From contig OZ255726.1 in the NCBI GenBank assembly GCA_965277405.1, positions 1,280,001 to 1,344,000 on the forward strand: a DNA stretch of 64,000 nucleotides, written 5' to 3'. The position numbers and the translations under genes are program-made. Of this stretch, positions 6,650 through 44,837 are shown piece after piece (within the stretch, counting starts at the first letter, position 1; each line of letters begins with the position of its first letter). The DNA is from Gammaproteobacteria bacterium. GTDB taxonomy: Bacteria > Pseudomonadota > Gammaproteobacteria > G965277405. A model generated the notes under the pieces. The model had not been told where the DNA came from. It made no database searches and was given only the letters and a program-made list of their open reading frames with translations.

Positions 6650-6729
6650 TCAGCACATACTATTGTACTTGTACGCTACAGTCGCAAGTATTTGCAATAA
6701 GAAAGTGTTTATATCACCACCATTTATTC

Positions 6730-8643
6730 ATGCTCAAAACCTTTAATACCATTCCATCACAACGCCCGATAACGGCACTCCTTGACAGCGTGAGCACACC
6801 AAAAGATATCAAGAATTTTTCGCACGAACAACTTATTGAATTAGCCAATCAACTCCGTGAGTTTTTATTGTTTTCTGTTGGTCAATCTGGTGGTCATTTT
6901 GGTGCTGGTTTAGGTGTTATAGAGCTCACCGTCTGCTTGCATTATCTGCTTGATACGCCGCATGACAAATTGATTTGGGACGTAGGTCATCAGGCTTATC
7001 CGCATAAGATATTGACGGGCCGTCGTCAGCTTTTGCCAACGATTCGTCAACAGGGCGGGCTTTCCCCTTTTCCAAAACGCAGCGAAAGTCAATACGATGC
7101 GTTTGGTGTCGGGCATTCTAGTACGTCTATTAGCGCTGCATTAGGGATGGCGACTGGCTTGCAGCAGCAGCAAAAAAACAACAAAATTGTTGCGGTGATT
7201 GGTGATGGTGCACTTACCGCAGGAATGGCGTTTGAAGCGCTTAATCATGCTGGTGCAATCCATGCCAATATATTAATAATTTATAACGACAATGACATGT
7301 CAATTTCATTGAACGTTGGGGCGTTATCCAAAATATCTGCAAATTTCTTTTCTGGGAACATTTACACACGAACGCGTTTAGGGTTGAAAAAAATACTCAG
7401 CTATACCCCTATATTGCTCGATATTGCCAAACGTTTTGAAGCTCATACCAAAGGGTTTGTTGTCCCTCCTTCGTCGTTGTTCGAAGCTTTTGGCATTAAT
7501 TATATTGGGCCAATAGACGGTCATAATATTGCTATGCTGACAAATACCATTCGCAACTTACTTGCGCTGGAAGGCCCGCAGGTTTTGCATATTCGCACTG
7601 TCAAAGGCAAAGGCTTTATCCCAGCTGAAAATAATCCGATTGGCTACCATGCTCTCAATAAAATATTAAAAAAACCACTACAGCAGCCAATTGCAATTCG
7701 TAAGAAATATTCGCAAATATTTGGTGAATGGGCCGTTGATATGGCAGCTGTGGATCAAAAACTGCATGTGATCACTCCTGCAATGGTTGAAGGCTCTGGT
7801 CTTGTTGAATTTGCCAAAAAATTTCCAAATCGCTGCCATGATGTTGGGATAGCAGAACAACATGCAGTCACCTTTGCCGCAGGGCTTGCAGGTGTCCAAC
7901 ATAAGCCGATTGTGGCTATTTATTCAACTTTTTTGCAACGAGCGTATGATCAGGTAATCCATGATGTATGTTTACAGAACCTCGATGTCACTTTTGCAAT
8001 TGATCGTGCTGGCTTTGTTGGTGAAGATGGTCCATCGCACGCTGGCAGTTTTGATATAGCATTCTTACGCTGCATCCCCAATATGGTAATTATGTGCCCT
8101 AAAGATGAGCGGCAATGCAGGCAAATGCTGTCTACTGCGTATGCATTCACAGGCCCTGCTGCTGTGCGTTATCCGCGCGGAGAAGGTTCTGGTATACACA
8201 CATGCAACAATCTTGACCCTTGGCCAATGACCACAAGTGAAGTAATCTATCAGCTAGATAGTATTGATATTGCCCTGCACTCTGGTGTTATTTATGCTTT
8301 TGGTACTCTCTGTGCAGCAGCGCAAATTATTGGTAAAAAGCTTGGATACCTTGTCATTAATATGTGCTTTGTCAAACCACTTGATACCGATATTCTTGAT
8401 GCAACTATAGATGTCGCCAACAAAGTAACAATCGAAGAAGGCTGCAAATTTGGCGGCGCAGGCTCGGCAATAAATGAATATTTTCTTACGCAAGGTCAAC
8501 GCCTGCACATATGCAACCTTGGCATTGAAGATGAATATATCGAACATGGCAGCCGCAGTTTTCAACTGCAACATGCCGGTTTAACGGCTGAAAAAATGGC
8601 AGCGCGCATTGCAATGTTTTTTGGCAGTAATGAAGCAACGTAG
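6730..8643 (+). CDS. dxs: 1-deoxy-D-xylulose-5-phosphate synthase
   Basis: GGHFGAGLG, WDVGHQAYPHKILTGR, GDGALTAGMAFEALNHAG, VGIAEQHAV, DRAGFVGEDG. Confidence 0.97.
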   Translation: MLKTFNTIPSQRPITALLDSVSTPKDIKNFSHEQLIELANQLREFLLFSVGQSGGHFGAGLGVIELTVCLHYLLDTPHDKLIWDVGHQAYPHKILTGRRQLLPTIRQQGGLSPFPKRSESQYDAFGVGHSSTSISAALGMATGLQQQQKNNKIVAVIGDGALTAGMAFEALNHAGAIHANILIIYNDNDMSISLNVGALSKISANFFSGNIYTRTRLGLKKILSYTPILLDIAKRFEAHTKGFVVPPSSLFEAFGINYIGPIDGHNIAMLTNTIRNLLALEGPQVLHIRTVKGKGFIPAENNPIGYHALNKILKKPLQQPIAIRKKYSQIFGEWAVDMAAVDQKLHVITPAMVEGSGLVEFAKKFPNRCHDVGIAEQHAVTFAAGLAGVQHKPIVAIYSTFLQRAYDQVIHDVCLQNLDVTFAIDRAGFVGEDGPSHAGSFDIAFLRCIPNMVIMCPKDERQCRQMLSTAYAFTGPAAVRYPRGEGSGIHTCNNLDPWPMTTSEVIYQLDSIDIALHSGVIYAFGTLCAAAQIIGKKLGYLVINMCFVKPLDTDILDATIDVANKVTIEEGCKFGGAGSAINEYFLTQGQRLHICNLGIEDEYIEHGSRSFQLQHAGLTAEKMAARIAMFFGSNEAT

Positions 8644-22331: not shown

Positions 22332-22432
22332 TGAGGTTCCCCCTTGATAGACATGTGTAGTTTGGTGCTGATATGCCACACCGATGAATTTTGTTACTCT
22401 TTATCCTCCATTTTAAGCGTCGGATTGCATCC

Positions 22433-41947: not shown

Positions 41948-43957
41948 TCAACTGACCGCAACAAATCGTTGTTTCAAGATATGAATTTGATCACGGTACC
42001 ATGATGCTTGTTCAAACTCGAGCTGTTGCGCGGCATGGTGCATTTTTTCTTCAAGTTTGGTAATTTCTTGATGAATTTGCACATCAGTCATTTTGTTATA
42101 ATTCGTAGCTGCAGTTGCAGTATTGGTTGCTGCACCGTTGTAGCTTTGTCCAATATCTAACATGTCATCAATCGGTTTTTCAATTTGACGCGGTGTGATA
42201 TTATGCTGCTTATTGAATGCTGTTTGACAGGCTCTTCTGCGGTCGGTTTCATCAATTGCTCGCTGCATCGAATTTGTTATTTTATCTGCATACAAAATAA
42301 CACGACCGTGTAAGTTGCGCGATGCTCTGCCCATTGTTTGCACTAGCGAGCGTTCCGAACGGAGAAATCCTTCTTTATCTGCATCCAGAATTGCCACTAA
42401 TGCGACTTCGGGAATATCTAAACCTTCGCGCAATAAATTGATGCCAATCAACACATCAAACACAGCCATGCGCAGGTCTCTGATAATTGCTACGCGCTCG
42501 ACGGTTTCGATGTCTGAGTGCAAATACCGCGCTCTAATTTTTTGCTCAGCAAAATATTCTGACAAATCTTCTGCCATGCGTTTGGTTAATGTTGTAACCA
42601 ATACACGTTGTTTTTTTTCGCTGCAGACACGGACTTCAGATAACAAGTCATCTACCTGCTCGCTAGCAGGACGAATGACAATTTCAGGCTCTACTATTCC
42701 TGTAGGACGAACGAGCTGTTCTACAATTTGGTCGCTGTTTTGCGCTTCATAGTCGCCTGGTGTTGCAGAAATAAAAATACGTTGCAAAGAAAATTCTTCC
42801 CATTCTTCAAAGCGTAGCGGCCTATTGTCCAGCGCCGATGGCAGCCGAAACCCGTATTCTACTAATGTTTCTTTTCTAGATCGATCGCCTTTATACATTC
42901 CGCCAATTTGTGGGACTGTAACGTGGGATTCATCGATTAAAATCAATGTGTCTTTTGGCAAATAATCATACAGCGTTGGTGGCGCGTCGCCGCTTTTTCT
43001 ACCAGAAAGATAGCGTGAATAATTTTCTATTCCAGCACAATATCCAAGTTCACGAATCATTTCAATATCATATCTGCAGCGCTGCTCAAGCCTTTGTGCC
43101 TCCACAAGGTGATGCTCTGCACGCAGTATTGTGAGTTGCTGCGCCAGCTCAGCCTCTATCAATTCAATGGCGTTCAACAACGTTTGCCGTTCAGTCACAT
43201 AATGGGTTTTTGGGTAAATCGTGCAGCGAGGTAGGTCGTGAATAACTTGCCCAGTTAATGGGTCGATAAAGCGCAGGCTTTCGACTTCATCATCAAATAG
43301 TGATATGCGAATCGCTTCGCGGTCGGATTCAGCTGGAAACACGTCGATGTTTTCACCGCGTACGCGGTAAGTGCCGCGATCAAAACCCACGTCATTGCGT
43401 TTATACTGTAATTCACTCAACCTGCGTACTATTTTACGTTGGTCAATGATTTCGCCAACACTGAGATGTAACATCATCTTTAAATATTGCTCGGGTGAGC
43501 CCAAACCATAAATAGAAGATACGGTAGAAACAATAATCGTGTCTGGACGTTCTAATAACGCCTTGGTCGCCGAAAGCCGCATTTGTTCAATATGCTTGTT
43601 TACCGAAGCATCTTTATCTATAAAAGTATCAGATGCTGGGACGTATGCCTCTGGTTGATAGTAGTCATAATAACTGACGAAATACTCCACAGCGTTATTT
43701 GGAAAAAACGACTTGAATTCTCGGTATAGTTGTGCAGCTAAGGTCTTATTGTGCGCCATTATAATTGCTGGACGTTGCAGATCCATTAGCATATGGGCGA
43801 GGGTGAATGTTTTTCCTGAGCCAGTGACGCCAAGCAAGGTCTGGTGCGCAAGTCCGCTGTTAATACCATCCACTAACTGCGCGATTGCAGCGGGCTGATC
43901 TCCAGAAGGTTTAAACGGTGCGTGAACGCGTAATTGGTATCGTAAGGGGTCTACCAT
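41948..43957 (-). CDS. uvrB: Excinuclease ABC subunit B
   Basis: [62 protein letters not shown]-terminal UVR domain. Start trimmed to ATG 43957. Confidence 0.97.
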
Positions 43958-44022
43958 AAAGTAGTAAATTGCGCTGTATATAAGGAAGTTTTGAAAAATA
44001 TCAAAATAACACGCTTTTAATG

Positions 44023-44050
44023 TTGCGTTGCACAAAAAACATATTATTAT
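44023..44050 (+). promoter_or_regulatory. Putative sigma70 promoter for the candidate sRNA
   Basis: TTGCGT-N16-TATTAT with AT-rich sequence upstream, ending 7 nt before the first hairpin. Confidence 0.45.
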
Positions 44051-44057
44051 CCTTTGC

Positions 44058-44182
44058 GTCGCCCCGAAATCCCCCCCTGGTCTCGGGGACGGCAACAAGA
44101 TGTGTGCGTTTCTTTCCTCCTCCTTGAGAAACGCACAATCTTCCTCCTTAAGAAAAGCGATCCTAGATCGCTTTTCTTTTTT
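44058..44182 (+). ncRNA. Candidate small RNA with C-rich / anti-Shine-Dalgarno loops
   Basis: Three consecutive hairpins: GTCGCCCCGA/TCGGGGACGGC with a C7 loop region; AAGAT-G-TGTGCGTTTCT/AGAAACGCACA-ATCTT with loop TTCCTCCTCCTTG; linker CCTCCTT; then a terminator. Confidence 0.65.
44150..44182 (+). terminator. Rho-independent terminator
   Basis: AAGAAAAGCGATC-CTA-GATCGCTTTTCTT followed by TTTT. Confidence 0.8.
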
Positions 44183-44333
44183 AAAGCCGAAATTACCTCT
44201 CTTACCTTTACTATCTCTCGCCTTTACAACAAGCGAATAGGTCATTGTAGCCTAAAATAACTTTTTGTTGCAACTTATTGACTATACAATGCGTATTTAT
44301 TTCCTATATTTATGTATATAGGGAGCGTCGCAT

Positions 44334-44837
44334 ATGAATAATCACCAAATAGCCGTAGTCATGGGTTCCCATTCTGATTGGAAAACAATGCAGCATTGCT
44401 GTGCAATCCTTGACGATTTCAATCAGCAATATCTCAAACAAGTCGTATCTGCGCACCGCAGCCCTGACTTAATGTTTTCTTTTGTGGAACAGGCTCGCGA
44501 TAATGGCATAAAAATCATCATTGCAGCAGCAGGCGGAGCAGCACACCTGCCTGGAATGCTTGCCGCTAAAACTACTGTCCCTGTTATCGGCGTACCGATT
44601 GCCTCACAAATCCTTAATGGCATTGATTCATTATTATCAATCGTACAGATGCCTGCGGGAGTACCTGTAGCAACAATGGCAATTGGCAAAGCAGGAGCGA
44701 TTAACGCTGCGTTATTTGCATTGGCTATGTTATCTACTCACGACAGCAAGATTGCCACAGCTATTGCAGCATTTCGCAACAACAACCAACAACGGATATT
44801 AGACAACCCAAATCCAAGCCAGCCTCCATGCGTGTAG
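44334..44837 (+). CDS. purE: N5-CAIR mutase
   Basis: VMGSHSDW, VVSAHRSP, AGGAAHLPGM, GIDSLLSIVQMPAGVPVAT. Confidence 0.96.
   Translation: MNNHQIAVVMGSHSDWKTMQHCCAILDDFNQQYLKQVVSAHRSPDLMFSFVEQARDNGIKIIIAAAGGAAHLPGMLAAKTTVPVIGVPIASQILNGIDSLLSIVQMPAGVPVATMAIGKAGAINAALFALAMLSTHDSKIATAIAAFRNNNQQRILDNPNPSQPPCV

Follow-up and report, generated by a model that had tools for sequence, protein, structure and literature searches.

Introduction

The cuckoo RNAs of the alpha-r14/CcsR group (NfeR1, CcsR1-4; RF02344, RF02791) are described as two to four adjacent hairpins that carry CCUCCUCCC in each loop (PMC4615179). The same account reports 321 of these RNAs in 2,680 genomes, all of them alphaproteobacterial (78 of 78 host genomes), and presents a modular build as a known trait of anti-Shine-Dalgarno (anti-SD) sRNAs (PMC4615179). 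The typical targets of the cuckoo RNAs and NfeR1, as given in PMC10746234, are the mRNAs of transporter binding proteins, on which the RNA is presumed to act by occlusion of the ribosome site. The sX13 RNA is described as a Hfq-independent molecule of 115 nt with three stem-loops and 4C, 4C, and 5C loops, which pair with G-rich ribosome-site motifs in about 5% of genes; according to this description it is always found downstream of polA and in the Xanthomonadaceae only (PMC3771888). From the Betaproteobacteria, the S17/tsRNA/NcS27 RNAs are reported to contain single-stranded C/U-rich sites ahead of a terminator hairpin and, with Hfq, to repress many transporter genes at their ribosome sites. 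That family is defined in the report by a 27-nt stretch with 100% conservation, and its Bordetella locus lies between a glycosyltransferase gene and coq7 (PMC11722255).

Here we describe a structured element in a 64,000-nt stretch of a gammaproteobacterial genome (contig OZ255726.1, positions 1,280,001 to 1,344,000, referred to below as the window), and we compare it with these systems. A first-pass annotation made from the sequence had read the element as a stand-alone anti-SD sRNA. Modelling of the fold and of the seeds leads us to a similar reading, namely that the element is a lineage-specific, trans-acting sRNA of the plus strand that would block strong Shine-Dalgarno sites, to which we assign a probability of about 0.5.

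Host Genome and Locus

The genome consists of one contig of 2.17 Mb with a GC content of 44.8%; it is 98% complete and about 84% coding. Its lineage stands alone at the order level among the species genomes searched, the closest of which belong to the same class only. The presence of ZipA_C, the absence of GcrA, and a 16S rRNA that is 82-83% identical to the E. coli 16S agree with the gammaproteobacterial label. The genome encodes Hfq (genome positions 408538-408723, minus strand), and no gene for CsrA or ProQ was found in this 98%-complete, single-contig sequence. It is unusual for a gammaproteobacterium to lack CsrA. The stretch is present in three DNA contig runs from a single study, which show no difference from it, one of the three covering part of it only; in two runs the contig depths are 33.5 and 284.8. 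These runs may be the source of the assembly.

The element is located in the intergenic gap 43958-44333, with uvrB on one side and purE-purK on the other. The uvrB gene (41948-43957, minus strand; Pfam UvrB_inter, UvrB, Helicase_C, and UVR) starts with the ATG at 43957. The purE gene (44334-44837, plus strand; Pfam AIRC) starts with the ATG at 44334, 151 nt downstream of the element's terminator, and is followed on the plus strand by purK, whose product matches Pfam ATP-grasp/PurK_C. A ribosome site, AGGGAG (44320-25), can be recognised in the sequence ahead of the purE ATG. Since uvrB and purE are divergent and both transcribed away from the element, its terminator ends no gene. The GC-rich island that had been noted in this AT-rich gap was confirmed: the GC content rises to 0.58-0.66 at 44050-44124, from 0.22-0.28 in the flanking parts of the gap.

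Two further repeats were observed in the gap. The 12-mer TGTATATAGGGA before purE reappears as TGTATATAAGGA at 43975-86, close to the start of uvrB. A 19-nt inverted repeat, GTTGCACAAAAAACATATT and AATAACTTTTTGTTGCAAC, brackets the element at 44027-44045 and 44256-44274, with 15 of 19 positions complementary; its left arm overlaps the putative -35 box of the element and its right arm a minus-strand promoter-like site, both described below. No further copies of the arms were detected in the host genome. As the bracketing arms do not form a repeated family, the identification of the unit as a MITE was rejected; the arms could represent a shared operator or chance.

Upstream of 43957, the uvrB frame has no stop over 96 codons; the other five frames contain 1-8 stops. 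The stretch might on this count be coding, either for a 96-residue N-terminal extension of UvrB (ATG at 44245, minus strand) or for a small plus-strand ORF (ATG at 44100-44240). We consider such a coding function hardly credible: the codon log-odds is 0.018 per codon compared to 0.219 +/- 0.065 in real genes (5th percentile 0.110), a Pfam search of the four translations matched nothing at E up to 1, and the plus-strand ORF runs across the terminator. In addition, the alignment of UvrB homologues from metagenomes begins at residue 1, that is, at the Met at 43957. A coding origin of 43958-44245 was rejected because its codon usage is not gene-like and a Pfam match is absent. Automatic annotation could over-extend uvrB through 43958-44245 on the minus strand, across the entire hairpin element.

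Structure of the Element

On the plus strand, positions 44058-44182 fold into three hairpins in succession, the last of which is a terminator hairpin with its U run. The minimum free energy (MFE) of the element is -54.5 kcal/mol (z -7.7), and none of 200 dinucleotide shuffles of this strand folded as well. Hairpin 1 (44058-44093; -16.5 kcal/mol) has 10 outer pairs, one bulged A, and the loop region AAAUCCCCCCCUGGU, in which the C7 run (44071-44077) has a mean unpaired probability of 0.78, three weak inner pairs being possible. Hairpin 2 (44097-44142; -19.4 kcal/mol) is built of 5 + 12 pairs, a single G being bulged out, and is capped by an 11-nt loop, UCCUCCUCCUU (44115-44125), which carries the seed UCCUCCUCC and is unpaired with a probability of 1.00 in the partition function. 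The 7-nt linker CCUCCUU, which holds the second CCUCC seed, has a mean unpaired probability of 0.90 by the same calculation and, together with the first A of the terminator stem, reads CCUCCUUA (44143-44150). The C-rich and CCUCC seeds thus lie in unpaired regions (0.78, 1.00, and 0.90), as in the anti-SD sRNA class.

The intrinsic terminator (44150-44182; -16.0 kcal/mol) is a perfect 13-bp stem (44150-62 / 44166-78) with the loop CUA and T6 at 44177-82. The 3' arm of the stem overlaps the T6, and the full 13-bp stem leaves just 4 U after it; counted from the GC core, the terminator reads GAUCGC followed by UUUUCUUUUUU. A scan of the stretch did not list this terminator, which may be because just 4 U follow the full stem. 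Hairpin 1 with its C7, hairpin 2, the single-stranded linker, and the terminator were all present in the fold and the partition function as the first-pass annotation had described them; the two-part stem of hairpin 2 was also found, but with 12+5 pairs and one bulge instead of the 11+5 bp given there.

The element contains a 20-nt direct repeat in which 44139-44158, including the linker seed, copies 44115-44134 at 85% identity. This sequence similarity suggests that the second seed arose via duplication of a seed module. The linker had also been called identical to the canonical 16S rRNA 3' tip. The CCUCCUUA that it forms with the first A of the stem does equal the E. coli-type 16S tip, but the tail of the organism's own 16S is CCUCCUAC, which reads ...CACCUCCUAC, and CCUCCU alone is common to the linker and this tail. 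The host 16S 3' end, ...GGAUCACCUCCUAC, lies at genome positions 691254-691304, in the one rRNA locus that the search matched.

A putative sigma-70-type promoter can be read from the sequence at 44023-44050 on the plus strand, with TTGCGT (44023-28), 16 bases, and TATTAT (44045-50). Its -10-like box ends 7 nt ahead of hairpin 1, and the start is predicted near 44056-44058. This TTGCGT-N16-TATTAT sequence had been proposed as a plausible promoter; it is indeed there, but it is weak, matching the consensus at 8 of 12 positions (3 of 6 in the -35 box), and it is not among the sites listed by a promoter scan of the stretch. The scan lists two sites, compared to 1.5 expected from shuffled sequence: TTGCAA-18-TACAAT on the minus strand (44273 to 44244) and TATACA-16-TATATT on the plus strand (44283-44310), which precedes purE and is downstream of the element's terminator.

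Strand and Relation to the Flanking Genes

All the hairpins can form on the minus strand too, where the MFE of the whole element is slightly lower, at -56.2 kcal/mol (z -5.9). For the terminator stem this follows from its palindromic sequence; on the minus strand it is succeeded by AAGGAGG, and its energy is equal on both strands. Hairpin 1 reaches -17.8 kcal/mol on the minus strand against -16.5 on the plus strand, and since it is at least as stable on the minus strand, the earlier argument that its G-U pairs favour the plus strand fails. The U run, the other half of that argument, is longer on the plus strand and does favour it. Hairpin 2 is 2.2 kcal/mol better on the plus strand (-19.4 vs -17.2 kcal/mol). 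The plus strand is thus favoured by the U run, hairpin 2, the z-scores, and the position of the -10-like box, and not by G-U pairs.

The function could instead lie with the minus strand. Transcription from TTGCAA-18-TACAAT (44273 to 44244) would in that case give uvrB a long and structured 5' leader; as a second possibility, the minus-strand RNA, rich in GGA/GGAGG, would act by titrating ribosomes or an RNA-binding protein. The TTGCAA-18-TACAAT site is the only minus-strand one in the scan and, read towards uvrB, immediately precedes the element, the minus-strand loops display AAGGAGGAGGAAA and AAGGAGGAAG, and the fold is strong on this strand, with the MFE and z-score given above and hairpin 1 better by 1.3 kcal/mol. 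However, the terminator hairpin would come first and cut the leader off, and the last hairpin has no U run. The promoter-like site itself is one of two found where 1.5 are expected by chance. Neither CsrA nor ProQ was found in the genome, and with no CsrA a Csr/Rsm-type sponge would be left without its partner; Csr, Rsm, and other minus-strand sRNA families were also absent from the Rfam matches at E up to 10. On balance, a function of the minus strand seems to us quite improbable.

Purine genes are often under leader control, and the element is on the purE strand, 151 nt upstream of the gene. It could thus act in cis as a purEK leader or attenuator, with a signal-dependent choice between a stop at 44182 and read-through into purE. 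Against this, no riboswitch or leader family was matched even at E up to 10, and the purine-rich arms 44127-37 and 44150-62 are unable to pair as an antiterminator. When the fold was extended into purE, all three hairpins were kept and the seeds were still unpaired, including with the purE ribosome site. Between the seeds and the purE TIR, weak pairing of -7.2 to -8.7 kcal/mol is predicted; pairing with the ribosome sites of uvrB and hfq is weak as well, and purE has a promoter-like site of its own past the terminator. We regard a role as a purEK leader as very improbable.

Search for Relatives

No Rfam family was matched at its gathering threshold anywhere in the window. With the threshold relaxed to E up to 10, 11 weak matches were obtained over 43900-44400, none of them near its own cut-off, and the sub-threshold likenesses to sRNAs with CCUCC or UCCC motifs were all on the plus strand. 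Among the weak matches, LhrC (RF00616) had the highest raw bit score, with 30.5 bits over 44087-44183 on the plus strand against a cut-off of 110; ar14 (27.9 bits, cut-off 58.8, plus strand) had a lower E-value than LhrC, and CcsR1 reached 19.9 bits (cut-off 65.3, plus strand). These results agree with the earlier remark that the locus was not recognised as a described family, the best score at the locus being 30.5 bits where 110 are needed.

The element resembles the cuckoo/alpha-r14/CcsR RNAs in its size (about 100-150 nt), its adjacent hairpins, and its final terminator, and the two are also alike in their repeated unpaired CCUCC-type anti-SD seeds and in their modular, duplicated build. 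The hairpin 2 loop contains CCUCCUCC, which has 8 of the 9 letters of the cuckoo motif. Unlike in the cuckoo RNAs, no other loop of the element bears the motif: hairpin 1 displays C7 and the terminator a CUA loop, and the third seed belongs to the linker. The host is of the gammaproteobacterial type and not alphaproteobacterial, and the ar14 and CcsR1 scores fall below the respective Rfam cut-offs. With 8 of 9 cuckoo letters in one loop alone, the element would be cuckoo-like in its working and not a member of the family.

The closest gammaproteobacterial analogue is sX13, with three hairpins and C-rich loops as in the element. Both are intergenic and both adjoin a DNA-repair or replication gene. 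The sX13 seeds are plain C runs, whereas the element also uses CCUCC; none of the sX13 models was among the 11 Rfam matches at E up to 10, and the neighbours of the element are uvrB and purE, not polA, so the element falls outside this family as well. Rfam includes an S17-type family, and no betaproteobacterial sRNA family was among the matches at E up to 10. The neighbours of S17 also differ from uvrB and purE, which may set the element apart from S17. Like the element, LhrC of Listeria and the RsaE/RoxS-type RNAs of Firmicutes have C-rich motifs at three places, namely a loop, a linker, and the vicinity of the terminator. They come from a different phylum and have UCCC seeds where the element has CCUCC, and the LhrC score lies below the gathering score of that family.

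BLAST of the element against its own genome returned the element itself, its palindromic terminator on the opposite strand, and one 22-nt match (E 1.85). A covariance model, R1, was built from the single sequence of the element and found only the element in the host genome, where it is therefore single copy. The collection of homologs from related genomes that had been recommended yielded none: BLAST matched none of 60 relatives, and R1 gave four weak matches in 150 other genomes of the class, with E of 0.05-0.9 per genome, which is the level of chance and corresponds to alignments of a generic hairpin and terminator. A two-motif pattern run over all species genomes matched 58 loci scattered over many phyla, of which R1 scored one (18 bits, GC-rich, and unrelated). 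A looser three-part pattern gave one match, without visible structure, in 400 genomes of the class, as compared to five for the reversed control pattern. R1 matched none of 80 uvrB loci from metagenomes (80 kept of 593 relatives, the best UvrB being 72% identical), and none of 14 pattern matches in viral contigs fitted R1. As the nearest genomes are of the same class only and yielded no homologue, covariation and loop conservation lend the element no support.

A C-rich-loop unit was seen in another family of the same class (genome G094, contig C57, positions 6721-6832, minus strand), where a hairpin with a nine-C loop is followed by a strong terminator. It scored 20.5 bits to R1, and we regard it as analogous, homology being without support.

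The element was then placed among the hairpins of its own genome with a crude gene map of 1764 ORFs and a scan of our own for terminator-like hairpins, which had to reach -11 kcal/mol or lower and to be followed by a T-rich tail. Of the 1031 hairpins in this set, the element alone is preceded within 130 nt by three CCUCC; two CCUCC were counted for one other hairpin, one for 27, and none for 1002. The terminator-like hairpins of -15 kcal/mol or lower include 52 that are intergenic: 35 follow a co-oriented gene, 11 lie between opposite-strand genes, and 6 are in divergent gaps. The element is not counted among these 6 because the crude map over-extended uvrB across it. In a fold scan of the first 1.62 Mb, 33 of 12,266 intergenic 128-nt window-strands folded as well as the element (top 0.3%), or 72 after GC correction, with tRNAs, the rRNA operon, and MITE copies left unmasked. 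The sequence TCCTCCTCC has two occurrences in the entire 2.17-Mb genome. The element is a clear outlier, though other strongly folded non-coding DNA exists in the genome.

The failure to find a homologue in any collection searched would also be expected of structured DNA that is functionless or architectural, such as what is left of a mobile element or of the end of a lost gene, or a terminator active in both directions that insulates the promoters of the divergent uvrB and purE, with the CCUCC motifs being incidental. The perfect palindromic stem of the terminator, which in principle works on both strands, and the 19-nt inverted repeat that brackets the unit (44027-45 / 44256-74) point in the same direction. 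A mobile origin is at odds with the single copy seen by BLAST and by the covariance model and with bracketing arms that are not repeated in the genome, and an insulator is at odds with the gene order, as the convergent transcription that would need insulation is absent here. In addition, a set of three hairpins, each perfect or nearly so, that expose repeated motifs is unique among 1031, and in 2.17 Mb of sequence of which about 84% is coding it would be difficult to maintain in the absence of selection. For these reasons we hold a functionless or architectural origin to be unlikely.

Predicted Targets

GGAGG precedes 66 and GGGGG precedes 39 of the 1764 crude gene starts. With GGAGG before just 66 starts, a selective regulon is possible; for sX13, the comparable share of genes with G-rich motifs is about 5%. 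The dctP gene and the LIV binding-protein genes of the window had been proposed as plausible targets, and the ribosome sites quoted for them do exist. Two LIV-type paralogues share the site CAAGGGGGAAC and are both in the top 2.6% of predicted seed pairing, but the dctP of the window ranks at 18.5%, and the support for these targets is generic. Overall, 6 of the 15 genes for TRAP or LIV binding proteins fall in the top 10% of predicted pairing.

The target prediction that had been suggested as a check does rank strong-SD genes high, but the TIRs barely exceed windows inside genes, with a 1st-percentile energy for seed 2 of -15.1 compared to -14.0. Reversed seeds scored alike, a control that is uninformative because the near-symmetric motif reads alike backwards. 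The top target lists from the three seeds are made up of generic strong-SD genes, and the ten best targets are functionally mixed (a WD40 protein, an ABC-3 permease, a histidine phosphatase, DctP, HSDR_N, BCCT, an M20 peptidase, an acetyl-CoA synthetase, SBP_bac_6, and one protein without a family). The ranking of the TRAP and LIV genes mostly reflects strong ribosome sites in general, and a specific regulon cannot be claimed.

Some of these genes share their initiation regions. The LIV-type paralogues at 22345 and 24040 of the window (Peripla_BP_6; 347.8 and 343 bits) are adjacent on the minus strand and have a near-identical initiation region, CUAUCAAGGGGGAACCUCAAUG. Two genes of about 955 aa on the plus strand, at genome positions 535315 and 1682826, share the ribosome site CACAGGAGGGGGACGUUCAUG, which pairs with all three seeds in the predictions. 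The gene at 535315, the one of the pair that was scanned, encodes the WD40 protein listed above; the paralogy of the two was judged by their identical ribosome sites.

Discussion

The sequence of the element, its fold, the exposure of its motifs, its orphan position, and its single-copy status are established here, and from these we infer the transcription, strand, mechanism, and targets of the candidate sRNA. Transcription would start just past the weak sigma-70-type promoter and end at the intrinsic terminator, giving an RNA of ~126 nt (about 44057-44182). This RNA would present three pyrimidine seeds, the C7 of the hairpin 1 loop, UCCUCCUCC in the hairpin 2 loop, and the CCUCCUU of the linker, which are predicted to pair, in a minority of mRNAs, with Shine-Dalgarno regions of the GGAGG or GGGGG type. 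Such pairing would shut out the 30S subunit and repress translation, possibly with the help of Hfq. The anatomy fits the stand-alone anti-SD sRNA of the first-pass annotation (an orphan terminator, a -10-like box, and seeds that are unpaired with probabilities of 0.78-1.0), but no homologue was found to accompany it.

By analogy, the candidate would work like NfeR1 and the cuckoo RNAs or like sX13 while being a member of no described family, and its functional kind is well known. As the anti-SD mechanism itself is already well known, what is gained from the candidate is incremental, and it remains an unproven prediction. A broader proposal would be that a deep-branching gammaproteobacterial lineage without CsrA or ProQ has, through a duplicated seed module, independently evolved an RNA with several seeds that mimics the anti-Shine-Dalgarno tail of the 16S. 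In this proposal the RNA would be a global brake on the few strong-SD mRNAs, including those of the TRAP and LIV uptake proteins, and a convergent counterpart of cuckoo/NfeR1 that fills the niche held by Csr/Rsm elsewhere in the Gammaproteobacteria. We offer it as a speculation, and as a rather doubtful one.

If the reading of the element as a trans-acting anti-SD sRNA is true, this would be the first regulatory RNA for an uncultured lineage. It would also represent a further independent origin of the multi-seed anti-Shine-Dalgarno design, beyond those in the Alphaproteobacteria, the Xanthomonadaceae, and the Firmicutes, and would support the view that this design arises easily by convergence.
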